A stretch of 64,000 nt of DNA, from positions 10,404-74,403 of the forward strand of contig NZ_JACVZV010000010.1 of NCBI RefSeq assembly GCF_014654725.1, read 5' to 3'. This document shows, piece after piece, positions 29,957 to 40,421 of the stretch. This DNA is from Vulcanococcus sp. Clear-D1. GTDB lineage: Bacteria > Cyanobacteriota > Cyanobacteriia > PCC-6307 > Cyanobiaceae. The position numbers were made by a program, and so were the translations under genes. Position 1 is the first letter of the stretch, and the number at the start of each line of letters is the position of its first letter. Below the pieces are notes generated by a model. It was not told the origin of the DNA and ran no database searches. It was given only the letters and a program-made list of their open reading frames with translations.

Positions 29957-30394
29957 TCAGAGCTGGGGAGCGGGAGGCGGCGGGGGTGTGGATTGAGGCG
30001 GCGCTGTCGGTTCTGCCGCGGGAGCGACAGGCGCAGCCGGCAGCTCCGGCTCGCGCGGCGGTTCGATCTGATTCGCGCGTTGCAGCTCGGCTTCAGCCTG
30101 CTTGGCCGCTTCAGCGCGCTGCTTGGCCTCCTGCTCCTGTTGACGCTCTAGCTCTTGCAGCTCCCCACGGATTTCGGCCTGGGCATCGCCAAAGCGCAGC
30201 GTCAGGCTCTCCAGGCTGGTGCCGGGGAACACCTGCACATCAAACCCTGGGCCAAAGCGGATCAGCTCGGTGACGTTGAAGCTGAGCAGCCGCTGGGCGA
30301 CGCCATAGGCGAGGCCAAAACACAGCCCAGCGATCAGAGGACCCTTCCAGATCTGCTGGGGGCGAGGCTGGGTTGGCTGCGACACTCTTGCCAT
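29957..30394 (-). CDS. hypothetical membrane protein with a coiled-coil segment and a Pro-rich tail
   Basis: The TM candidate is 'GPLIAGLCFGLAYGVAQRLL'. It is followed by 'ELQELERQQEQEAKQRAEAAKQAEAELQRA' and a 'PPPPPAPQL' tail. Confidence 0.55.
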   Translation of the reverse strand: MARVSQPTQPRPQQIWKGPLIAGLCFGLAYGVAQRLLSFNVTELIRFGPGFDVQVFPGTSLESLTLRFGDAQAEIRGELQELERQQEQEAKQRAEAAKQAEAELQRANQIEPPREPELPAAPVAPAAEPTAPPQSTPPPPPAPQL

Positions 30395-30564
30395 GCGCGG
30401 CCCACATCAAGCCTGCAACTCTAAGCAGCGAAAGCCGCATTGGCCCGGGCGGCGAGCCGCGGGATGAACTAGCCCATGCAGGTTTTGCATCAACGCGGCC
30501 GGTCTGTGTGGGTGCCAAGAACTCAACAGAGCCAGCCGATCTCAAGGCTTAATTTCAGCATCGC

Positions 30565-31476
30565 GTGTTGGGGAAGGCAGTTGTGATCTCGCTGGACAAC
30601 CTCGCCGCGCTTGATCACCTCATCTGGCTGCGCACCGGCCAACGGGCAGCCGAAGCGCTGGCCTGCGCACAGCCCACCGTGAGCCGCAACAGCCGCCGTT
30701 GCCTGGAGGTCTTCGGCCTGGAGCTGGCCCGCAGCCGCGGCGAATGGCGACTGGTCGGCGATACGGAGCTGCTCAACCTGGAGCGCTCCGTGCATCAGCA
30801 GTGGCGCTGGAGCCGCCGCTGCACCCTACGGCTCGAAGCCCAGCACTGGTCAGCACCAGGGCTGGATGGCCTAGACCTCACCAACTGGCAACGCGGCAAC
30901 TTCAACCAGCTCGAGTACGAACAGCCCCACGCCCTCCTGAAAGACGGGGTGATCGATGCCTGGATCTGCTCAGCACCGGATGCACCGGTGCGTGACGGAC
31001 TCACCGCCCTGCGGCTCACCACCATGCCGATGCATCTGATGGTGCCGGTGGGTCACCCACTGGTTGATCGGCGCGATCCGATCGCCTGGGATGACCTGTT
31101 GCCCTACCCGGTACTGCCTCTGCCCAATGGCAGCTTCCCGGTCTTTGAAGGCGTGCTGCGCCGATGCGGCCTCTTGCCCAGTGCAGAACGGGAACAGGCG
31201 ATGAAACAAGCCCCCTGGTTTGGGCAGGTGCCGGTGGAGTCGATGCTGATCGGCTACTCGTCGCCGCTCACCCTGCATCTGTTTGGCGACGAGTGGGTAC
31301 GCCTTCCGCAGCGTTTACCCGTAGACGTTGGCGATGTGCTGATGGTGCGTGATGCCTACCGCGATCACCCGCGCACCAAGGGCTTGTTCAACCTGCTGAT
31401 TGATCACCTCAGCCGCCTGGCTGCCCCGCACCCTGAGGTGACCGTGCACCGCAGCCCCGTGGCTTACGTCGTGTAG
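30565..31476 (+). CDS. LysR-type transcriptional regulator
   Basis: The N-terminal wHTH is 'LDHLIWLRTGQRAAEALACAQPTVSRNSRRCLEVFGLELARSRGEW', followed by a roughly 200-aa effector-binding-like domain. The start is GTG. The TAG stop at 31474-31476 lies inside the left att repeat. Confidence 0.7.
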   Translation: MLGKAVVISLDNLAALDHLIWLRTGQRAAEALACAQPTVSRNSRRCLEVFGLELARSRGEWRLVGDTELLNLERSVHQQWRWSRRCTLRLEAQHWSAPGLDGLDLTNWQRGNFNQLEYEQPHALLKDGVIDAWICSAPDAPVRDGLTALRLTTMPMHLMVPVGHPLVDRRDPIAWDDLLPYPVLPLPNGSFPVFEGVLRRCGLLPSAEREQAMKQAPWFGQVPVESMLIGYSSPLTLHLFGDEWVRLPQRLPVDVGDVLMVRDAYRDHPRTKGLFNLLIDHLSRLAAPHPEVTVHRSPVAYVV

Positions 31477-31487
31477 TCGGCGTTGAT
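31468..31487. repeat. left direct repeat (attL core) of the integrative element, an orphan copy of the argJ 3' end
   Basis: GTCGTGTAGTCGGCGTTGAT matches 36681-36700 at 18/20 positions. Its reverse complement encodes INADYTT plus a TAA stop at 31464-31466. Confidence 0.8.
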
Positions 31488-31541
31488 ATAGCACATTGCT
31501 CAGAACAGCTGCTATCATTGGAGTTTTGCATTCCTGAAAAG

Positions 31542-31599
31542 TGACACAGCCGTGACACAAGGCCTGTTGCCGCCCATCCCCTGACACAAACTTGACACA
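31542..31599 (+). promoter_or_regulatory. four direct TGACACA repeats (putative integrase arm-type sites, left arm)
   Basis: TGACACA occurs at 31542, 31553, 31582 and 31593, as two pairs with 11-bp spacing. They lie between attL and the integrase start. Confidence 0.6.
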
Positions 31600-31617
31600 C
31601 TCCTGCGTCGACCCACC

Positions 31618-32916
31618 GTGACCAAAAGCGAGGACGGAACACTTGTACTGAACAAGACAAAGATATTCAACGCCGAAAATTGCTATATCTACCAACGTGG
31701 AGGAACCAAGTCAAAATACTGGCAGTTTTATTATTGGGATTCAGAGGGAAGGGAAGGGTTCAGAATTAGAAGATCACTAAGGACCAAAGACTTTCTAACC
31801 GCCCAATCACTTGCCCAGAAAGAATATATCAACATCAAAGCAAAAATCCAGAACGAAGAGTCACTGCAAACGCTAACAGTCGGAGAAATGGCGAGGATAT
31901 TTCTTGCCAAGAAGAAGTCTACAATAAGCTCGGCACCACACGCAGGGGTGACACCAGAAACTTATCGAGTGCTGAAGAATAAATGCAGGAAGTTAATTGA
32001 CTACCTTGGAGAAAACACAAGAGTTGATCACCTCAAACGAAATGCATTTGAAGGCTATGAGCAGTGGCGAAGAGATGGACACGGAGGCAAGATACCTAAA
32101 ACAAAAACAACAATCAAGGCTGAACTATCTACCTTTAAATCTGTTATTCAGAATATCGCAGTCAAAGATAAGAGAGTAATTAGCAATTCCCCAGACATCC
32201 CTGAGATCAAGGTACCTCGCACCGAAGCACGACACAGGAGGAATCACTTTAGAGACGACGAACTAAAAATACTACTTAGAACAATACATGAATGGAAAGA
32301 AGAAGATGTAATCAGGAAAACAGCAGGGCTTCACAGGAAAATAATTGCTTGCGCCATAGAGTTAATGCTGAATAGCGGAATTCGTGTTGGCGCAGCAAAG
32401 AAAATCAGATGGCGTGACATAAGAATTAATTCTAGAGACAGCCGAGAGCAGCAGAGGCTCTACAGAATTATTACGGTGCCGCCAGAGAATAACAAGACCG
32501 GCAAGGAATATGAATGCAATTGCGAGGTAGCACTTGTGCTGAATCGGCTGAGGACAGTTTCTAGCTTCACCAAGTCAAGTGACCTACTATTCTGCAATCA
32601 GAAAGACGGAAAATCTTTTTCTTCTAGGATTTGGGCAGATGCCTGGAACCAAATAATTGCTAAAAGCAAGCTTGAAAACGATACAGGCAGAAAGTTTTCG
32701 TACTACTCTTTAAGACACACCTATGCAACCATATCACTAGCAAACAAAGTTCCACTGCAACTTCTTGCATCAAACATGGACACAAGCACTAAGTATATTC
32801 AAGACCATTATTATCACCATGAGCCCGAAGGATTGACGGCGGAACTTAATCCTATAAAAAGAACGAGAAAACTAACAGGGGGCGAAATGTACAGCACATA
32901 TGTTACGCCACAATGA
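31618..32916 (+). CDS. int: tyrosine site-specific recombinase (phage-type integrase)
   Basis: The C-terminal catalytic region contains 'NSGIRVGAAKKIRWRDI' (Arg I), 'YSLRHTYATISL' (HxxR) and 'STKYIQDHYYHH' (Tyr nucleophile region). The start is GTG. Confidence 0.85.
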   Translation: MTKSEDGTLVLNKTKIFNAENCYIYQRGGTKSKYWQFYYWDSEGREGFRIRRSLRTKDFLTAQSLAQKEYINIKAKIQNEESLQTLTVGEMARIFLAKKKSTISSAPHAGVTPETYRVLKNKCRKLIDYLGENTRVDHLKRNAFEGYEQWRRDGHGGKIPKTKTTIKAELSTFKSVIQNIAVKDKRVISNSPDIPEIKVPRTEARHRRNHFRDDELKILLRTIHEWKEEDVIRKTAGLHRKIIACAIELMLNSGIRVGAAKKIRWRDIRINSRDSREQQRLYRIITVPPENNKTGKEYECNCEVALVLNRLRTVSSFTKSSDLLFCNQKDGKSFSSRIWADAWNQIIAKSKLENDTGRKFSYYSLRHTYATISLANKVPLQLLASNMDTSTKYIQDHYYHHEPEGLTAELNPIKRTRKLTGGEMYSTYVTPQ

Positions 32917-33006
32917 ATTCAATAAAAGGATGGAAATACGAGGGAAGGGAAAGCGATCAACTATTAGTATAAAAGATGACTGATATAGATTTGCGAACTC
33001 AAAAGA

Positions 33007-33399
33007 TCATTCCTCCTCATACTTAGAGAATGAGGTGAGATAACTTTTTGAAGGTTCAACATTTTCATCCTCTGAGTATGATACAGCATAGACCACAGCT
33101 GTCTGAGAGCCCGAGGCACCGAAGTCCTGATTAATTGTTGAGGCTTCAGTTTCTCCAAGGTGCTTACCCAGCCACAGTATATCCTCAGGAGTTAATGAGC
33201 CAAATGGATTATCTTCATCTTGACGGTTAACCCAGCAAATAGGATCAAGAGAATCCCAATTGCAAGCCTGCACATCATCAACATCTATTTCGTACACTAC
33301 AACTTTTGCAAAGTCAAAATTCATATCAAGCTCATCATCAAGCTTTGCCCAAAGAGACTCTTTATCATCATCCTCAAGGGAATCAAAAAGGCTTTCCAT
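33007..33399 (-). CDS. small, extremely acidic hypothetical protein (130 aa)
   Basis: The sequence starts 'MESLFDSLEDDDKESLWAKLDDELDMNFDF..' and ends '..SYSEDENVEPSKSYLTSFSKYEEE'. Roughly one residue in four is D or E and very few are K or R. I recognise no family. Confidence 0.5.
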   Translation of the reverse strand: MESLFDSLEDDDKESLWAKLDDELDMNFDFAKVVVYEIDVDDVQACNWDSLDPICWVNRQDEDNPFGSLTPEDILWLGKHLGETEASTINQDFGASGSQTAVVYAVSYSEDENVEPSKSYLTSFSKYEEE

Positions 33400-33533
33400 G
33401 CAAAAAGGCGGTATTCTCTACTTCTCCATCATAGCGCCTACCGCTAGAACAGGCAACCTACTAGAGAAACGGTCAACGATGCAGACAAACTCAAGAATAA
33501 ATCAAATATAATAGAATTGCCAGAAAGAATGAG

Positions 33534-34160
33534 TCAGCCCCTAGAGTGAATGGCAGCTGCCAATTTCTCCCAAGACGCATGAGCCCCTTTGTAGTTACAT
33601 CCAGGAGGTGCTGCCGAAAACGCACTTACATACTGATTAAATCCAACTTTACGCAACCTTCTTTGAGACTTTCCACCTAATGCGCATACAACAGCATTTG
33701 GAAACAACTTGATCTCCTCTAAGAGGTAATTTGTAACGCAAGCTTTTTCTATGCCAATAGGAATAGTGCCACTCTCCTTCTCTGCTGAGCAAAGGACAGA
33801 ATCAGTCAAGAGAGACTTGCAGAGTTGCTGATCGAAAGTTAAGCCTGGAAAACACATATCTAGAATTAATCGTACCCTTTTATGAAACAGATCAGTCTGA
33901 GAGCGATAGCATTCTTCGGTATATCTTATTGAATCATCAAGAGAAGAAAACGACTCAGATTCATGCGGGTCTCCAGGCTCTGCAAAAATCAAAATCAGCT
34001 CAACTTCTTCTGGTTTTCCATTGGCACCACATATGCCTCTTGGAGCAAAACCCTTGGACGGACAGAATTTTATACTTTTGCATGATGACTCTAGGAGAGG
34101 GCAAGGAGACCAGGCTTGCTGCAAAAGCTTCAGCAGAGAGCTATTCATGCTAGACAGCAA
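33534..34160 (-). CDS. uracil-DNA-glycosylase-superfamily-like protein (divergent)
   Basis: The layout resembles family 4/5 UDGs. N-terminal Cys residues come first ('CPLLESSCKSIKFCPS'). 'ELILIFAEPGDPHE' matches the motif A region (GE.PG). 'VLCSAEK..ACVTNYLLEEIKLFPNAVVCALGGKSQRRL' follows. 'FSAAPPGCNY' occupies the place of the HPS motif B. This is pattern recall only and has not been searched. Confidence 0.4.
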   Translation of the reverse strand: MLSSMNSSLLKLLQQAWSPCPLLESSCKSIKFCPSKGFAPRGICGANGKPEEVELILIFAEPGDPHESESFSSLDDSIRYTEECYRSQTDLFHKRVRLILDMCFPGLTFDQQLCKSLLTDSVLCSAEKESGTIPIGIEKACVTNYLLEEIKLFPNAVVCALGGKSQRRLRKVGFNQYVSAFSAAPPGCNYKGAHASWEKLAAAIHSRG

Positions 34161-34273
34161 TAACTTAGTTTGAAGTATATCCCATCTGCTCTTTTCGTCA
34201 AGCGACAGGGTTGACAGCGCAAGGGACTAGCGCTATAATAAGTCTGCCAGGCTTCAGACATATTAACTAAAAC

Positions 34274-34292
34274 CTATATAAATAGTATTGAC
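34274..34292 (+). promoter_or_regulatory. 19-bp repeat copy 1 (CTATATAAATAGTATTGAC), a putative operator/promoter
   Basis: It matches 35364-35382 at 18/19 positions. It contains the near-palindrome CTAT-ATAA-ATAG and runs into a TTGAC(G) -35-like hexamer, with TATTCA 17 nt downstream. Confidence 0.5.
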
Positions 34293-34532
34293 GCAATGCT
34301 GTCAGGCCAATATTCACATATTCTATCCAATTTGGGTCAAGCAGATGCCGCTCAGTTTGTTTAGAAGTAAATATTTTCCTTGCCAGGACAGGGATTACCT
34401 GGAGGTTATTGGTGTCTCCAATGAAACAGAGGATAACTCCAGAATCAATCATTAAGCCTTTTTCAGGTAAGTCTCCAGCATCCCCTCCTATTATAATACA
34501 TAAAGAATTAATGTTATATCCTCAATTGCAGT

Positions 34533-35168
34533 ATGACCCAAATGAAAACCAACAGCAAAGGAAAAATAGCCAGAAATTGGCTTTTGGGTAGCCAGTCATT
34601 AAATCAACACTTAAGAAGCTTATCGTCAAAAGGATTTTGGAGCCAGGTATTCAAAGAATACATCTCCTACCAATTCGATTCGGTTTTTAAACCATCATAC
34701 TTTGGGACTATCTGCTGGACACCATTCTTATTTGAATTTAATGAAGCAGTGAAGGAGACAAGCCACTTTAAGAATAAGTTTCTTACGGCTTTATGCGACT
34801 GCAAGTTGTATCAGATACCACATTTACCAGACAGGCCTAGAATAATCTTTTTCCATGAGACAAAAGAAACTCTAGTCAATCCAACATCTTCTAATCCGAA
34901 GTACAAACGTGCCCTGCATACCCATTTTCACCTAGAGGGCTCTGACAAGATTCCCGATGTTCATTATCTCAATATGCTTATCCAGGCCAAAGTAAGGCCA
35001 GGATTTGACAGGCTAAAACGGAGAGATACTGCCTTACATAAGGCTATTGTCATCCAAGATTGGATTAGAGATTTTCATGCAGACTATAATCTGAAGGACT
35101 TCTGCTCTAATAGATATCGCCAAGATGGTGACTTAGTGATCGACTACAAGAACTCCGATCTGGGATAA
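34533..35168 (+). CDS. hypothetical protein with HUH-endonuclease-like motifs (possible rolling-circle Rep/relaxase-type protein)
   Basis: The ordered motifs are 'KFLTAL' (FLTLT-like motif 1), 'ALHTHFHLEG' (HUH motif 2) and 'FHADYNLKDF' (YxxK motif 3). Spacing is about 47 and 55 aa, like the pC194/pUB110-type Rep layout. Motif-level only. Confidence 0.35.
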   Translation: MTQMKTNSKGKIARNWLLGSQSLNQHLRSLSSKGFWSQVFKEYISYQFDSVFKPSYFGTICWTPFLFEFNEAVKETSHFKNKFLTALCDCKLYQIPHLPDRPRIIFFHETKETLVNPTSSNPKYKRALHTHFHLEGSDKIPDVHYLNMLIQAKVRPGFDRLKRRDTALHKAIVIQDWIRDFHADYNLKDFCSNRYRQDGDLVIDYKNSDLG

Positions 35169-35363
35169 GTACTCAGATGCAGAATCAATGAATTTATTTG
35201 ACTTTTAGGTTTCCAAGGCCTCATATAGCCAATCTTGGATTACAGGTTCAGTTTCTAGGGTTTTTCTGGTATTTTCACTGGAGTTTAGTGGGGTTCTGAT
35301 TCATGTACCTGCGGAATGCCCTTTGGCCTAGTTTCCGCATCATCTCTAGAGCAAGGCGGGAAG

Positions 35364-35382
35364 CTATATAAATAGTAGTGAC
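35364..35382 (+). promoter_or_regulatory. 19-bp repeat copy 2 (CTATATAAATAGTAGTGAC), a putative operator/promoter
   Basis: It is 18/19 identical to copy 1. It lies about 70 nt upstream of the RHH-like ORF at 35450. Confidence 0.5.
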
Positions 35383-35449
35383 TTCAGGATATTTACGCCT
35401 ATAGCATAGTTCTGCAGTCGTCAAAGAATTCAATCTATCGAAATCCAGT

Positions 35450-35632
35450 ATGCAAACTATCTATCGCAAGGGATTGGTATTTCAGGTAAGTTTAAAGTGC
35501 AGGGAATCCGAGAGACTTCTCCAGCAAAGGAATGAGTTGATGGACTACTATAAAATGGATTGCTCTGGCTTGATAAAGCATTTGATCTCAAAGGAGCATT
35601 ATTCAATAAGAAGGCAACTTAACTTGGTCTGA
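35450..35632 (+). CDS. small ribbon-helix-helix (CopG/Arc-like) DNA-binding protein candidate
   Basis: 'GLVFQVSLKCRESERLLQQRNELMDYYKMDCSGLIKHLISKEH' fits a beta-strand/helix/helix pattern. A further 46-codon ORF (35635-35775) follows 2 nt later. Confidence 0.35.
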   Translation: MQTIYRKGLVFQVSLKCRESERLLQQRNELMDYYKMDCSGLIKHLISKEHYSIRRQLNLV

Positions 35633-35761
35633 TTATGCTGAGCTCAGAAACCAGAAAGATCATCAGGAAGATCAGGGAGACCTGCAAAGATCCATTGACC
35701 AAGAAGCCAAGCTTTAAGTCAGACGATGAAGTTATTGAATTTGCAATAATGAGCCTAGATC

Positions 35762-36340
35762 TCAAGATGCGTTGACGTGATCCTTGAGAATCCTCTGGAC
35801 AGTGGCCAGAGACAGACCTGTTTGATCACGAATAGATCTGTAAGACTCACCTTCATCACGCAGTCGGACCACAAGGCGTTCCTTTTTGTCTGAGGTCTTT
35901 GGACGGCCACCAAGGTTGCCACCAGTTCGTCTGCGGTGCTCTACAGATTCTCTGGTGCGCTCCTGGATCAGAGAGCGTTCAACCTCTGCAAGGCCCGTTA
36001 GCAGGCCAATGACCAATGGCGCCAGCTTTCCAAGACCACTGGTATTGATCAAGCCATCCAAGGTGCGGACATAGACCCCTTGGATCTGAAGCTCGTTGAG
36101 TCGGTTGATTACTTCGACTTGTGATCTCCCAAGTCGATCCAGCTTTGACACGACTAATTCATCACCTTTCTGCAAGAAGTCAAGACACTTTCGTAACTGG
36201 CTGCGCTTTTCCAGTGGTGCTCTTGACGAGACCTTCTCAGCAAACACCTCGCTGCATCCTGCGGCCCTTAACTCTGCGATCTGGGCCTCAGTGTCTTGAT
36301 GGGCTGTTGAGCACCTTGCGTAGCCAATGGATTGCCCCAT
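35762..36340 (-). CDS. serine recombinase (resolvase/invertase family)
   Basis: 'IGYARCSTAHQDTEAQIAEL', 'LVVSKLDRLGRS' and 'GLAEVERSLIQERT' are catalytic-domain signatures. The C-terminal HTH is 'SYRSIRDQTGLSLATVQRIL'. Confidence 0.9.
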   Translation of the reverse strand: MGQSIGYARCSTAHQDTEAQIAELRAAGCSEVFAEKVSSRAPLEKRSQLRKCLDFLQKGDELVVSKLDRLGRSQVEVINRLNELQIQGVYVRTLDGLINTSGLGKLAPLVIGLLTGLAEVERSLIQERTRESVEHRRRTGGNLGGRPKTSDKKERLVVRLRDEGESYRSIRDQTGLSLATVQRILKDHVNAS

Positions 36341-36374
36341 AGCTCAAAACCCAGTGGGTATCCGAACAGAGCAA

Positions 36375-36572
36375 TCATACAGTGTTTCTGGTACGCATTT
36401 TTCTTTGTATGCACTTGCATTTAGATCGTGCTAAGAACCCCTGCGTTTTCATACACGGCTGGACACTCAGCGCAGCCAAAAGGCCGCCAAGCCCCAGGAG
36501 CTCTCCACTCGCAATGGCCATAAAGCCGCTTAGCGAGCCCATCGGCCAGCCAATCCCCACGCCCCAGAACAA
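36375..36572 (-). CDS. possible small hydrophobic protein with a basic tail (65 aa)
   Basis: 'MFWGVGIGWPMGSLSGFMAIASGELLGLGGLLAALSV' is followed by 'KCKCIQRKMRTRNTV'. Codons are GC3-rich. It lies directly upstream of, and co-oriented with, the serine recombinase. An overlapping plus-strand ORF (36382-36609) cannot be excluded. Confidence 0.3.
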   Translation of the reverse strand: MFWGVGIGWPMGSLSGFMAIASGELLGLGGLLAALSVQPCMKTQGFLARSKCKCIQRKMRTRNTV

Positions 36573-36613
36573 AAAGACCGCTATCGAGCAGCCCAGAGAA
36601 TGGGCATAATCGG

Positions 36614-36631
36614 TGACACAGCTGTGACACA
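36614..36631 (+). promoter_or_regulatory. two direct TGACACA repeats (putative arm-type sites, right arm)
   Basis: GTGACACAGCTGTGACACA (36613-36631) is 18/19 identical to GTGACACAGCCGTGACACA (31541-31559), with the same orientation and the same 11-bp spacing. Confidence 0.6.
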
Positions 36632-36676
36632 GAGATTTTCAGGCTCTTAGAAGCACTGCAGCACAAGGGATCTTGA

Positions 36677-37906
36677 CTAGGTAGTGTAATCGGCGTTGAT
36701 CCGCACGTATTGATCGGAGAGGTCGCATCCCCAGGCGCAGCCGCTGCTGGAGCCAGCGCCAACCTGAATGCGAATCAGCACCGTGTCGTCTTTGAGGTAG
36801 GCACCAGCCGCCCGATCGCGCATGTAAGCCGAAGCCGAGGGGCGATCGAAGGCGAGGGGTTGGCCAGCCGCCATCAGCTGGTGCTCACCGAGCCACAGCG
36901 CTACCGCATCAGGATCCATCGGCACGCCGGCGCGGCCGGCGGCGGCCACGATGCGGCCCCAGTTGGGATCGCGGCCGTGCACGGCGCACTTCACCAGGGA
37001 GGAGCCACAGATCGTACGGGCGATGGCACGGGCAGCGGCGTCATCGCTGGCGCCCTCCACCTGCACCTCGATCAGACAGGTGGCACCTTCGCCATCCCGA
37101 GCGATGGCTTGAGCCAGGTGTTGCGACACCGCTGTCAGGCCGGCCTCCAACGCCTCGTAATGCTCGGGGTTCAGGGGCTCACCGGCTGCAAACGCCAGGT
37201 ACGTGTCGTTGGTGCTGGTGTCGCCATCCACCGTGATCGCATTGAAGGAGCGATCCACCGCCCGCTTCACCATCGCCTGCCACACATCGGCCGGCACGCC
37301 GGCGTCGCAACTGAGATAGCCGAGCATGGTGGCCATGTTCGGGTGAATCATTCCCGAGCCCTTGGCCATGCCGCCGATGCGCACGCGGCGGCCACCCAGC
37401 TCGGCCTCAAGAGCGATTTGCTTGTCGATGAGGTCGGTGGTGAGGATTGCCGTAGCGGCAGCGGAACCACCCTCAGGGCTGAGCGCTTCAACCAAGGGAT
37501 CAATCCCCGCCAAGAGGGTGTCCATCGGGATCGGCACGCCGATCACACCCGTGGAGCAGATCAGCACCTCCTCGGCCGTTAGCCCCAGACGATCCGCCAT
37601 GGCCTGGGTGGCGCGCTGGCTATCGATCAGGCCCCGATCACCGGTGCAGGCATTGGCCTGGCCGGAATTGGTGAGCACCGCCCGGGCCCGGCCTCCGCTG
37701 GCCTGCAGCCGCTCGGCGCACAGATCCACGCAGGCGGCTCGCACCAGTGAGGTGGTGAAGGTACCGGCGCAAACGGCGCCTTCCGGCGCCAGCACGAGGG
37801 AGAGATCAGGCTTGCCGGAGGCCTTCAGGCCCGCCGTGATGCCGGCGGCGAGAAAGCCTTGCGGGGCCGTGACGCCGCCGGAGATGGGCTGCCAGGGATG
37901 CGTCAC
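36677..37906 (-). CDS. argJ: bifunctional ornithine acetyltransferase / N-acetylglutamate synthase
   Basis: The autoprocessing site context 'PNMATMLGYLSCDA' is present, along with 'GMAKGSGMIHP' and the C-terminal 'YVRINADYTT'. Confidence 0.93.
   Translation of the reverse strand: MTHPWQPISGGVTAPQGFLAAGITAGLKASGKPDLSLVLAPEGAVCAGTFTTSLVRAACVDLCAERLQASGGRARAVLTNSGQANACTGDRGLIDSQRATQAMADRLGLTAEEVLICSTGVIGVPIPMDTLLAGIDPLVEALSPEGGSAAATAILTTDLIDKQIALEAELGGRRVRIGGMAKGSGMIHPNMATMLGYLSCDAGVPADVWQAMVKRAVDRSFNAITVDGDTSTNDTYLAFAAGEPLNPEHYEALEAGLTAVSQHLAQAIARDGEGATCLIEVQVEGASDDAAARAIARTICGSSLVKCAVHGRDPNWGRIVAAAGRAGVPMDPDAVALWLGEHQLMAAGQPLAFDRPSASAYMRDRAAGAYLKDDTVLIRIQVGAGSSSGCAWGCDLSDQYVRINADYTT
36681..36700. 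repeat. right direct repeat (attR core), the functional 3' end of argJ
   Basis: GTAGTGTAATCGGCGTTGAT is the repeat. Its reverse complement encodes INADYTT, followed by the TAG stop at 36677-36679. Confidence 0.8.
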
Positions 37907-37947
37907 GGCGGGCGCTGCTTACTCGAATCCTGCGATTCTGAGCGCTG

Positions 37948-38610
37948 ATGGCCCACTCGCCTGTGGCAGAGATGCCCGCCTCACCGCGCTGGAGCGGTCC
38001 ACAACGCCGCATTGGTCTCACCGGCGGCATTGCCAGCGGCAAAAGCACCGTGGCCCGCTGGCTAGCCGAGCAAGGGCTACCGGTGCTGGATGCGGATGTA
38101 TTTGCGCGGGAAACGCTGGCGCCGGGAAGCGCTGGGGCCAAGGCCGTGATCGATCGCTACGGCGAGGCGGCTCAAACAGCGGGGAGCGCACCAGCTGCAG
38201 CTGTGATCGATCGCGCTGCACTCGGGCGAATCGTGTTTCGCGATCCGCTGGAACGGCAATGGCTAGAGGACTTAGTGCATCCGCTGGTGCGCGAGCGATT
38301 CGACAGGGAGCTTGCAGCGCTCAAGGCAGCTCCGGCGGTGGCACTGGTCATCCCACTGCTCTTCGAGGCGGGCCTCGAAGGCATGTGCAGTGAGGTGTGG
38401 CTGGTGGACTGTGAAGCGGAACAGCAGCTGCAGCGCCTGATGGAACGCGATGGCCTCAGCGCCGAGGAGGCCCAGACCCGCATCGATGCTCAATGGCCAC
38501 TGCAGTGCAAACGTGCACTGGCAGATCGCTTGATCGACAACCGGAACAACGTCAAGGTGCTCAACAGTCAGCTCATGCAACTGCTCAACACACCGTTGGA
38601 GTACCTGTGA
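37948..38610 (+). CDS. coaE: dephospho-CoA kinase
   Basis: The P-loop is 'IGLTGGIASGKSTVARWL', followed by 'VLDADVFARE' and 'VIPLLFEAGLE'. The start is ambiguous between 37948 and 37972. Confidence 0.88.
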   Translation: MAHSPVAEMPASPRWSGPQRRIGLTGGIASGKSTVARWLAEQGLPVLDADVFARETLAPGSAGAKAVIDRYGEAAQTAGSAPAAAVIDRAALGRIVFRDPLERQWLEDLVHPLVRERFDRELAALKAAPAVALVIPLLFEAGLEGMCSEVWLVDCEAEQQLQRLMERDGLSAEEAQTRIDAQWPLQCKRALADRLIDNRNNVKVLNSQLMQLLNTPLEYL

Positions 38611-38621: not shown

Positions 38622-38679
38622 GCCAGCCTTGTGCCCAGTCATCAAGAGATCCTCTGATTTTGGCGAGGTTGTGTTCATC

Positions 38680-38697
38680 GAGAGGGGAACACCTCTC
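38680..38697 (+). promoter_or_regulatory. conserved hairpin or palindrome in the leader of the secreted-protein gene (copy 1)
   Basis: GAGAGG-GGAACA-CCTCTC is the element. The paralogous copy at 39661 carries a compensatory A>G / T>C double change that keeps the stem. Confidence 0.5.
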
Positions 38698-38721
38698 CAC
38701 ACTCCTCACCAAATAACCGTC

Positions 38722-39192
38722 ATGTCTGCTCTCTTCGCTCAAAAAACCATCACCGGTTACGCTGCTCTCGCCGTTGCGGCTGCTGGCACTGCCCTGCCTG
38801 GCTCTGATGCCAAGGCTGCTCCGCTGATCTTTGATTGCTACAGCCGCAGCACCAGCGATCTACTGGTGAAATCAGCCCTGGATCTGAGCAACGAAAATCT
38901 GGCTTGCGTTCAGAACGGTGTTGGCACTCCAGTCTCCTATGTGCCGGCCGCTCCTCAGCAGGTCTATGTGACTCCCGCACCCGCTCCTGCTCCGTCAGCT
39001 GGTTCCTCCTTCTTTGGCAGCATGCTCGGTGGCGCCATTGGCGGCGTGATCGGGAATGCCATCAACGGTGGCAACCGCACGACTGAAGTTCACCACCATC
39101 ACCAACAACGGCCAGCGGCTGAGGCGTCTCCAGCGAAGTCCCAGGTCGATATCTGCAGGATGAATCCCAAGCTCTGCATGATCGTGCGCTGA
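38722..39192 (+). CDS. secreted Gly-zipper / His-rich small protein, paralog 1 (156 aa)
   Basis: The signal peptide is 'MSALFAQKTITGYAALAVAAAGTALPGSDAKA'. The glycine zipper is 'GSMLGGAIGGVIGNAINGG', followed by 'EVHHHHQQ'. There are two Cys pairs. The start is set at the ATG shared with the paralog. Confidence 0.7.
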   Translation: MSALFAQKTITGYAALAVAAAGTALPGSDAKAAPLIFDCYSRSTSDLLVKSALDLSNENLACVQNGVGTPVSYVPAAPQQVYVTPAPAPAPSAGSSFFGSMLGGAIGGVIGNAINGGNRTTEVHHHHQQRPAAEASPAKSQVDICRMNPKLCMIVR

Positions 39193-39704: not shown

Positions 39705-40421
39705 ATGTCTGCTCTCTTCGCTCAAAAAACCATCACCGGTTTCGCCGCTCTCGCCCTTGCCGCTGCCGGCACTGCCCTGCCTGGTTCTGATGCCAAGGCT
39801 GCTCCGCTGATCTTTGATTGCTACAGCCGCAGCACCAGCGACCTGCTGATGAAATCAGCCCTGGATCTGAGCAACGAAAACCTCGCCTGCGTTCAAAACG
39901 GCGTGGGCGCTCAGGTGTCGTATGTGCCGGCTGCTCCTCAGCAGGTGTATGTCACCCCAGCTCCTGCCCCTGCTCCTTCTGCTGGTGAGTCGTTTTTCGG
40001 CAGCATGCTTGGCGGCGCCATCGGCGGCGTGCTCGGCAATGCCATCAACGGTGGCAATCGGACCACCGAAGTGCATCACCACTACGACCGAGGCCAAGAC
40101 CAACTTCAAGACACCATGGATCGTGGTGGTGCGACCTCTGAGCCACAAAAGACCGCCAGGAATTTTCTCCCTCGCGGCATGCACGCCCATAACCCCGTTC
40201 AGCGCAAGTCGATTGCTCTCCCTGATGGCTTGAAGCCATCAGGAAAACTGACCCTGCCTGGGAACAAGAATCTCGAACGCCAGAGCAATCCTTCTGGCGC
40301 TTCCATTTCCAACAACCCCTCCAACTCCTCCAAGCCTTCTGGAGTCGTGTTGCCCGGTGGCACGAAGATTGGTGGCCTTAACCCTTCCCTGGGCAAGCTC
40401 GGCAGTCGTCTTCCGTTCTGA
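39705..40421 (+). CDS. secreted Gly-zipper / His-rich protein, paralog 2 (238 aa) with a divergent extended C-terminus
   Basis: The first 126 residues differ from paralog 1 at only 7 positions. After 'EVHHH' the sequence is unrelated and rich in Pro, Ser, Gly and Asn. Confidence 0.7.
   Translation: MSALFAQKTITGFAALALAAAGTALPGSDAKAAPLIFDCYSRSTSDLLMKSALDLSNENLACVQNGVGAQVSYVPAAPQQVYVTPAPAPAPSAGESFFGSMLGGAIGGVLGNAINGGNRTTEVHHHYDRGQDQLQDTMDRGGATSEPQKTARNFLPRGMHAHNPVQRKSIALPDGLKPSGKLTLPGNKNLERQSNPSGASISNNPSNSSKPSGVVLPGGTKIGGLNPSLGKLGSRLPF

Follow-up and report, generated by a model that had tools for sequence, protein, structure and literature searches.

The 64,000-nucleotide stretch of Vulcanococcus sp. 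Clear-D1 DNA analysed here (contig NZ_JACVZV010000010.1, positions 10,404 to 74,403; hereafter the window, whose own coordinates are used throughout) contains an island of ~40% G+C within surrounding DNA of 65-70% G+C. This island is best explained as an integrative element that encodes a divergent, helicase-less replication initiator (Rep) of the HUH (His-hydrophobic-His) superfamily, which would replicate the element once it has been excised as a circle. Taken as a whole, we consider this explanation probable. The gene at its centre is the following.

34533 to 35168, plus strand: HUH-superfamily Rep-like protein of 211 aa, with motif I at F57-W62, the HUH histidines H129/H131/H133, the tyrosine Y185 with K188, and a conserved C-terminal tail, DGDLVIDYKNSDL

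The initial annotation of this region, made from the sequence letters, had assigned the 211-aa open reading frame (ORF) to the HUH endonucleases by three strings, KFLTAL (residues 82-87), ALHTHFHLEG (127-136) and ADYNLK (183-188). All three are present at these places, and the second and third hold as the His and Tyr motifs. Seventeen close homologues were identified, and a profile search of 1.84 billion representatives of 50%-identity clusters extended the family to 65 clusters at E <= 1e-3, none of which carries a Pfam domain or an informative name. The conservation of the His and Tyr residues on which the assignment depended was borne out among these homologues. Across a 42-sequence alignment that reaches down to ~20% identity, Y185 is invariant, and conservation is 90% or higher at P54, P96, R101, F107, E109, H129, W177, H182, N186 and K188, as well as at four C-terminal Asp residues; across a 35-sequence alignment, H129, H131, H133 and W62 are all conserved to at least the same degree. 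KFLTAL, by contrast, was rejected as motif I, as it sits in helix alpha1 (residues 69-88) of the structural model and shows only partial conservation. Motif I proper, F57-G-T59-I-C-W62, is found on the first beta strand (residues 54-66) with the family consensus F-x-T-x-x-W, and because this FGTICW string supplies the correct motif, the three-motif argument survives. H131-F-H133 occupies the third strand (124-135), and Y185 begins a helix (185-192) downstream of the HUH motif, which is the order seen in Reps. Judged from the alignment and model, H131 and H133 would probably form the metal site, with H129 or E109 as a further ligand and Y185 as the one catalytic tyrosine of a helicase-less, divergent HUH Rep.

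Structure prediction using AlphaFold2 yielded a weak model from 17 sequences (pLDDT 64) and a confident model from 42 sequences (pLDDT 85.6, pTM 0.81). In the model, two N-terminal helices precede strand 54-66, helix 69-88, strands 104-114 and 124-135 (the latter bearing HTHFH), helix 143-157, strand 172-176 and the helix that starts at 185, and this order of elements is that of HUH Rep nuclease domains. When compared with 48,161 PDB chains using VIA-align, the nuclease domain of adeno-associated virus 5 (AAV5) Rep ranked first with both models (Z 7.1 for the weak model; Z 7.7 over 119 residues at 3.1 A for the confident one), and NS1 of minute virus of mice (MVM) ranked second with the confident model (Z 7.1). 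HUH or Rep-origin-binding folds made up 10 of the 50 rows listed, the remainder of these being B19 NS1 (two rows), bocavirus NS1, geminivirus Rep, the SV40 T-antigen origin-binding domain, a Helitron transposase and RepB of pMV158 (two rows). Taken alone, this ranking is suggestive only. The top match of the model in BFVD was a Microvirus replication initiator (E 2.3e-3, prob 0.99), and six of the ten named rows among the top 50 were replication proteins.

The link between this protein and recognised Reps runs through a sister family. PF23343 (REP_ORF2-G2P), which describes the catalytic domain of rolling-circle initiators of the phage gene-II/ORF2 type, is found in 14% of the members of an ESM Atlas neighbour cluster of the 211-aa protein, which we treated as a lead only; the protein does not reach the curated cut-off of this family (27.8 bits) and has no match to it at E <= 1. 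A PF23343 search of 401 genomes of the phylum returned a weak match in a genome of the same genus, to a 198-aa protein that carries YFLTLSF, HLHILLEG and QYVNKS together with the same NSDL ending as the 211-aa family. This sister protein has 151 relatives, many with a precomputed PF23343 label, and all 22 of its aligned family members match PF23343 at E <= 0.01 (best 4.8e-8). Comparison of the two families using hhalign gave a probability of 95.5% and an E of 1.6e-8 over 163 columns, from motif I and helix 1 through the second strand with its terminal Glu and the strand that bears the HUH motif to the Tyr-x-x-Lys helix and the C-terminal tail. In this alignment H131-F-H133 falls on the HLH of the sister family, Y185 on its invariant Tyr and K188 on its Lys. 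Because the sister family matches PF23343 and aligns with the 211-aa family, the latter can be placed as a divergent branch of the rolling-circle Rep superfamily. Collectively, residue conservation, the model, the fold ranks and this bridge to a PF23343-positive family uphold the superfamily assignment made initially, and we conclude from sequence comparison and modelling that the 211-aa protein is very likely a HUH rolling-circle Rep. Current libraries miss the family directly, as its relation to PF23343 runs via the sister family only, and a PDB sequence search with the family profile produced chance matches only (E > 1).

The two picocyanobacterial families, otherwise distant, have a C-terminal tail (D-x-x-N-S-D-L) in common, and this shared NSDL tail may be a docking peptide for a host factor. 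Kinship with a classical Rep_1-like protein on a 3-kb cyanobacterial contig was rejected (hhalign probability 0.2%). That contig (L112; 2,963 nt, from another cyanobacterial genome) encodes a 348-aa protein with FLTLT, HPHFHVL and Y-x-x-K motifs, and looks like a small rolling-circle plasmid of the pC194/pUB110 type that is unrelated to the 211-aa family.

The Rep gene lies between two copies of an attachment (att) core, in company with the genes for two site-specific recombinases.

31477 to 31487, no strand: left att core copy of 11 bp, TCGGCGTTGAT, inside the argJ-tail duplication 31465-31487; these are the shared letters of the junction 36689->31477
36690 to 36700, no strand: right att core copy of 11 bp, the identical core duplicated
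31618 to 32916, plus strand: tyrosine integrase of 432 aa (PF00589, E 2.3e-12; phrog_1 integrase, E 5.7e-33)
35762 to 36340, minus strand: small serine recombinase of the resolvase/invertase type, 192 aa, with a C-terminal helix-turn-helix (PF00239, E 1.4e-32; HTH_7; phrog_125 DNA invertase, E 7.2e-48)

A 23-nt stretch encoding the last codons of argJ is duplicated at 31465-31487 and 36678-36700 (20/23 match), and the final argJ codons and stop are rebuilt by the element-borne portion of this stretch, 36678-36689. We therefore read 31477-36689 as a 5,213-bp integrative element, inserted by site-specific recombination where argJ and a LysR-type gene overlap at their 3' ends. The empty site was found at three of the 11 same-genus loci that we fetched around argJ; there, the LysR-type gene and argJ converge with a 7-nt overlap exactly at the att sequence. 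At two further loci (L129 and L136), the two genes are separated, at precisely the att sequence, by ~830 bp of unrelated DNA, and for this reason the argJ/LysR overlap looks like a recurrent insertion hot spot. The other six have no LysR-type gene within the fetched stretch. No tRNA genes were identified in the window using ARAGORN, the target being the 3' end of argJ.

The initial annotation had also described a plasmid-like element with a tyrosine integrase, and evidence that the element can leave its site comes from sequencing runs, all of them freshwater metagenomes; no RNA run is listed among those that contain the element. The integrated form is present in run X1, the probable source of the assembly, and in run X3 one contig that is 96% identical skips the element (31488 to 36762), leaving an empty argJ/LysR site. 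Stretches of the element that lack coverage in runs X3 and X4, with their small word shares, were left out of account. In run X2, from an independent study, a 420-nt contig of depth 3.68 joins 36689 to 31477 via the 11 shared letters with 0 mismatches, and the remaining element is present as 100%-identical pieces at depths of 3.6-6. Such an attP-type junction would arise from a 5,213-bp circle or from a tandem copy, and either fits. Among relatives, two metagenome contigs (5,975 and 5,197 nt) overlap themselves by 123 nt at their ends, as is typical of circular assembly paths, and each encodes a 590-599-aa PF00589 integrase, a Rep homologue and small unknown ORFs. As the host and the named relatives are freshwater organisms, the marine setting that had been supposed for this DNA does not apply.

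The remaining parts of the replication module are two copies of a 19-bp repeat, a promoter, a leader structure and two small ORFs.

34211 to 34239, plus strand: perfect sigma-70 consensus promoter TTGACA-17-TATAAT facing the Rep gene (12/12 matches), 35 nt upstream of repeat copy 1
34274 to 34292, plus strand: 19-bp repeat copy 1, with a -10-like TATAAA/TATAAAT inside, 259 nt ahead of the Rep ATG; kept in L113, L011 and the majority of relatives
34397 to 34441, plus strand: leader hairpin with ACAGAGG in its loop; in relatives, hairpins equally far from the start codon carry a conserved CAGAGG
35364 to 35382, plus strand: 19-bp repeat copy 2, 67 nt upstream of the orf60 ATG (86 nt start to start); conserved upstream of orf60 homologues in L011, L047 and L113
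35450 to 35632, plus strand: conserved 60-aa protein (orf60), a predicted homodimer and candidate ribbon-helix-helix (RHH) regulator, with 14 database relatives at 72-83% identity
35635 to 35775, plus strand: conserved 46-aa ORF (orf46), with homologues in L047 (61%) and L113 (76%)

The 211-aa, 60-aa and 46-aa ORFs are all conserved elsewhere, and are thus real genes rather than chance ORFs. The direct repeat is as first described, with two copies in the same orientation that are identical at 18/19 positions, or at 20/22 when extended to 22 nt; a third copy with <=3 mismatches is absent from the 64 kb, and 100 shuffles gave 0 matches. Homologous elements have kept the repeat. In most relatives a single related motif, typically CTATATAATTACTGGAGAC, precedes the Rep gene, while L011 and L113 possess two copies, of which one precedes Rep and the other starts 81-86 nt before the start of the orf60 homologue; L047 possesses the orf60 copy. 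Each copy had been interpreted as fused to a -35-like hexamer. The copies do end in TTGAC and GTGAC, but the part that relatives conserve is a -10 box: their motif opens with a perfect TATAAT, which in 23 of the 32 distinct contexts that fit a strict pattern is preceded, at a distance of 16-18 nt (mostly 17), by a hexamer agreeing with TTGACA in 4/6 or more positions. This pattern misses L017-type loci, although they carry the motif. Because relatives show this arrangement, we interpret the conserved part of the repeat as the -10/start region of a promoter, and its terminal TTGAC is probably not a -35.

The perfect promoter at 34211-34239 recurs upstream of the Rep homologue in L113 (3408-3436 of that locus), and in the window lies within a local DNA double hairpin (34197-34246; -10.0 kcal/mol, z -3.7), the most stable one in the element. 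Copy-specific bases of the repeat are retained between the window and L113 (TAGTAT.. in copy 1, TAGTAGTGA in copy 2). Since these bases and the 18/19 agreement exceed what a -10 box needs, a shared regulator site is likely. The leader between promoter and rep is conserved as well, its hairpins carrying CAGAGG in or beside their loops with compensatory changes in 8 of 17 predicted pairs, and because many of the pairs are G-U, the structure appears to act at the RNA level on the coding strand. Directly upstream of repeat copy 2 there is an inverted repeat, TTCCGC-N16/17-GCGG(G)AA (35333-35362 in the window, 4542-4569 in L113), that could be an operator or the terminator of the rep transcript.

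Neither the 60-aa nor the 46-aa ORF matched anything in Pfam, PHROGs, NCBIfam or PADLOC. The suggestion that the 60-aa protein adopts an RHH fold of the CopG type found lead-level support. Its nearest family-bearing ESM Atlas clusters all belong to the RHH clan (scores 0.89-0.90; RHH_1 in 26%, RHH_3 in 92%, NikA-like in 40% and TacA1 in 77% of the respective clusters), a result at the level of a lead, and a homodimer is predicted (ipSAE 0.52, 0.50 and 0.48, median 0.50, versus 0.00 for the best control; contact agreement at least 62%; pLDDT at least 63), but the protein has no profile match to an RHH family and no meaningful match in a PDB sequence search. The homodimer mark is reached by 20 of 30 proteins solved as homodimers and by 1 of 23 solved as single chains, and a pass may reflect likeness to solved dimers. 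Confident contacts involve residues 23-33 and 42-53, which form two predicted helices; these would fit an RHH dimer, but the N-terminal strand, and with it the beta ribbon, is not among them, and we regard the RHH fold as a lead.

The annotation had further proposed a control circuit of the CopG-Rep kind, and here the layout disagrees. In the copG-repB pair of the pMV158 family, the small repressor gene is directly upstream of rep in one operon, whereas orf60 follows rep, 281 nt beyond the rep stop and with a repeat copy of its own in front, an order that is the same in L011, L047 and L113. What the two systems share is a helicase-less, single-tyrosine HUH Rep (the pMV158 RepB structures 3dkx and 8amu align with the 211-aa model at Z 5.6), a very small protein, predicted to be a dimer in the window, and a repeated sequence at promoters. 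They differ in that orf60 has its own promoter copy and an RHH fold at lead level, in that an antisense RNA was not identified in the window, and in that the repeat is a direct repeat of a -10 region rather than a pseudo-palindromic operator.

From these observations we propose a mechanism in three steps. The tyrosine integrase would excise the element as a circle; the joined form and empty sites are observed, and the integrase is the presumed enzyme. The predicted Rep would then nick one strand at an origin and prime rolling-circle copying by host enzymes, and the small serine recombinase would resolve the multimers. The two 19-bp repeats would be a -10/start region common to two transcription units, rep and orf60-orf46, an arrangement that would place both units under one factor. 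The factor is most likely the 60-aa protein, a predicted dimer, which would bind the repeats.

A search of 401 genomes from the bacterial family of the host gave matches to the 211-aa family in 34, the host's own genome, with one copy, included; 6 of 29 other genomes of the host genus also matched. All 16 genomic regions that we fetched place the gene in low-GC islands. Named carriers are Synechococcus sp. UW140 (a metagenome-assembled genome), Cyanobium sp. CH-040, Vulcanococcus limneticus LL and a 1.8-kb contig binned as Verrucomicrobia. The sister family, which the host's own genome lacks, was found in 9 of 401 genomes. A gene for a serine recombinase ~64-86% identical to that of the window precedes the Rep gene by ~450-1,500 bp, on the same strand, at 27 of 60 loci from metagenomes and at 6 of 16 from genomes, and tyrosine integrases related to the window's are found at L011, L015 and L100, as well as at L093, where tblastn missed the Rep-like match. 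The UW140 locus, L113, has the exact layout of the window: Rep (56% identity), orf60 (78%), orf46 (76%), a convergent serine recombinase (94%) and then the argJ 3' end. A relative of the window's integrase was not found in L113. As these identities are unequal, with 94% for the recombinase versus 56% for Rep, the elements are mosaic and have exchanged modules.

Two structures in the relatives deserve mention. In the subfamily linked to the serine recombinase (for example L002, L004, L064 and L100), two adjacent hairpins lie within the first ~60 nt of the Rep coding region; their stems co-vary (GTTGC/GCAAC, GAACC/GGTTC, GTTCC/GGAAC) and their loops are conserved, as GAACGAAGTGA and a second GC-rich loop. 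These hairpins, which the window's subfamily does not have, are a possible origin or regulatory structure. In addition, the interval that separates the serine recombinase and Rep genes in relatives contains, ~65 nt ahead of the promoter motif, a short GC hairpin with a conserved TCTTAG(A/G)C after it, which is a candidate recombination or nick site.

Elements that combine an integrase with a rolling-circle Rep are a known kind, exemplified by the pSAM2-type actinomycete integrative and conjugative elements (AICEs) and by Rep-bearing mobilisable elements; what is new here is an undetected branch of Reps and a new host group. Compared with PF23343, the 211-aa family has a similar motif I (F-x-T-L-x), His-hydrophobic-His on the third strand and a downstream Tyr-x-x-Lys helix. 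It differs in being unmatched by the model, in its length of ~210 aa only with no helicase or other domain, in its three histidines (HxHxH) and in its DGDLVLDYxNSDL tail, which is shared with the sister family only. In pSAM2-type elements, a site-specific integrase and a rolling-circle Rep occur together, integration at a gene's 3' end restores that gene, and the excised circle replicates. The window element likewise pairs an integrase with a Rep, sits at the 3' end of a gene and restores that end. It lacks an FtsK-like transfer gene, as the FtsK/SpoIIIE-like transfer protein that marks AICEs was absent from the eight ORFs of the element scanned, and no excisionase was recognised. Further differences are its target, the protein-coding pair argJ/LysR rather than a tRNA gene, its extra small serine recombinase, its picocyanobacterial host and its size of 5.2 kb.

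Closer to the host, the tycheposons of Prochlorococcus are described in the available text as small integrative elements at tRNA genes whose replication genes are polymerases, primases and helicases (bioRxiv 10.1101/2020.12.28.424599), and a paper on the pigment island of Synechococcus, in the portion available, reports integrase-bearing insertions at tRNA genes and notes TnpR-like resolvases (PMC8995045). As far as that tycheposon text goes, the window element resembles these in being small, picocyanobacterial and equipped with a terminal, inward-facing tyrosine recombinase opposite a small replication module, and differs in targeting argJ, with no tRNA gene in the window, and in having a Rep instead of a polymerase, primase or helicase. 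The terms 'HUH' and 'rolling' have no occurrence in the available text of either paper. Our literature search found no description of the 211-aa family or of a HUH/rolling-circle element in picocyanobacteria; the tycheposon supplementary tables, which may list a Rep-like profile, were outside this search.

The element has further features whose roles are less clearly tied to replication.

31541 to 31559, 31581 to 31599 and 36613 to 36631, no strand: three copies of a TGACACA-type 19-nt repeat (79-95% identity), adjacent to each other in the circular form
33007 to 33399, minus strand: acidic ORF of 130 aa, cargo, of no known family in scans of Pfam, PHROGs and NCBIfam
33534 to 34160, minus strand: ORF of 208 aa, cargo, with a sub-threshold likeness to the uracil-DNA glycosylase superfamily (PF03167, E 0.0087, 16.6 bits against a cut-off of 24.3)

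The TGACACA-type repeats are candidate arm or accessory sites for a recombinase. None of the related loci searched using tblastn gave a match to the 130-aa ORF. A hydrophobic 65-aa ORF (36375-36572, minus strand) with no family match separates the serine recombinase gene from the right att site, in DNA whose G+C is higher (~55%). Outside the element, two neighbouring paralogous ORFs on the plus strand (38629-39192 and 39705-40421) are near-identical over their N-terminal 120 aa, which comprise a signal-like start followed by a Gly-rich and His-rich segment.

Several results weigh against a Rep that replicates an excised circle. At the level of the protein, the family has no direct match in Pfam, PHROGs, NCBIfam or PADLOC, none of 42 family members matches any Rep family in Pfam even at E <= 10, and the PF23343 model finds nothing in the host's own genome. 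Foldseek returned nothing from the PDB at E <= 1e-3 with either model, and every VIA-align Z is below 8, a range that the tool calls common, with ferredoxin-like proteins such as ribosomal S6 and SEA scoring nearly as high (5-6.5). In-frame stops are present in 5 of the 15 strongest genome matches. At the level of the element, genes lie on both strands, which is unusual for small rolling-circle plasmids, and the X2 junction contig cannot separate a circle from a tandem copy; the evidence from sequencing runs consists of contigs, from which neither copy number nor absence of the integrated form can be read. No family member was found among 72,556 plasmid (PLSDB) and 50,697 phage (INPHARED) records, where the sister family has no match either, and the 66 candidate stretches that IMG/VR yielded by pattern include no relative, so that the databases searched hold no proven free replicon with this family. 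Finally, a search for the nick-site hairpin (double-strand origin) expected of such a module found no origin in the element. The DNA around the repeat copies folds no better than shuffles (z -1.1, +0.2, +1.15 and -0.95), and an Rfam search of 30000-38000 gave one sub-threshold chance match. Candidates for the origin are the double hairpin at 34197-34246, which spans divergent promoters, the leader, and a 16-nt inverted repeat at 35048-63/35229-44.

Some of these points would also suit a HUH-like DNA-binding protein that has no part in autonomous replication, with the circles as short-lived excision intermediates from an ordinary integrative island and the protein in an accessory role such as regulation or recombination directionality. 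The missing origin and the absence of the family from known plasmids and phages agree with this, as do the tight linkage to the serine recombinase gene and the fact that non-catalytic origin-binding domains have the same fold (SV40 large T antigen, Z 5.7). However, the His triad, E109 and the Tyr-x-x-Lys helix are kept down to ~20% identity, as expected of a catalytic site rather than a pure binding domain. The depth of the X2 junction contig also equals that of the element pieces, and none of the listed X2 contigs crosses the junction between element and host, a weak point given that these are contigs. We judge this explanation unlikely.

Slightly less likely again is a relaxase-like initiator of single-strand DNA export for mobilisation or packaging, which would make the element an integrative mobilisable element or a satellite of a single-stranded DNA phage. 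Rep-like relaxases and Rep-only satellites are established kinds (MOBT relaxases; RS1 of CTX phage), phage gene-II-type proteins fall under PF23343, which is the nearest recognised family, and the best viral fold matches are Microvirus Reps. Yet scans of the ORFs of the 5.2-kb element with Pfam and PHROGs revealed no gene for a coupling protein, secretion, capsid or morphogenesis, and the virus and phage records contain no relative. Moreover, the HUH motif precedes the Tyr, as in Reps, whereas in classical relaxases the Tyr precedes the His motif.

It could also be argued that the 19-bp repeats are not promoter parts at all but the recognition or nick sites of Rep, an origin and a terminator; initiating at one and terminating at the other would set free a rep minicircle of 1,090 nt or power rolling-circle transposition. 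The two copies do bracket rep in the same orientation, their match and their retained copy-specific bases go beyond a -10 box, and the sequence is AT-rich with a small CTAT/ATAG inverted repeat. This we find improbable, as most relatives have a single copy with TATAAT 17 nt downstream of a -35-like hexamer, the second copy appears only ahead of an orf60 homologue, which fits a promoter, and no hairpin presents the repeat site. Two working origins in direct repeat would, in addition, delete the rep gene, as is established in plasmid genetics. Lastly, the suspicion that motifs and fold are convergent in an unrelated ferredoxin-like protein, to which the modest Z scores (many unrelated ferredoxin-like chains at 5-6.5), the empty Foldseek result and the lack of direct library matches might lead, is very improbable given a profile-profile link to a PF23343-positive family that spans the whole domain, three motifs on the expected secondary-structure elements, and the fact that HUH proteins rank first and second among all 48,161 chains with both models.

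The explanation that we prefer, an integrative element whose divergent HUH Rep replicates the excised circle, can be extended, tentatively, to a family of native self-replicating rolling-circle episomes of cluster-5 picocyanobacteria. On this extension, whose parts taken together we would place somewhat short of an even chance, the element would be a 5-kb integrating plasmid that alternates between the chromosome and a free, Rep-amplified circle; a minimal module of promoter, leader, rep, orf60 and orf46 would be usable as an autonomous replicon; and the NSDL tail would be a handle that recruits a host helicase or clamp.

Picocyanobacteria have been described, in the available text of the tycheposon study, as being without plasmids and other classical vehicles of gene transfer, and approximately half of their integrase-bearing islands are called cryptic there, having no recognised hallmark gene besides the integrase (bioRxiv 10.1101/2020.12.28.424599). 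The data presented here assign a protein family that had been without annotation, comprising 65 clusters and present in 34 of 401 genomes, to the functional class of rolling-circle Reps, and document one picocyanobacterial element both integrated and in a joined, circle-type form. If the Rep drives autonomous replication, it would provide a mechanism for the amplification and spread of small islands, and the element would be a candidate native replicon for genetic tools in picocyanobacteria.

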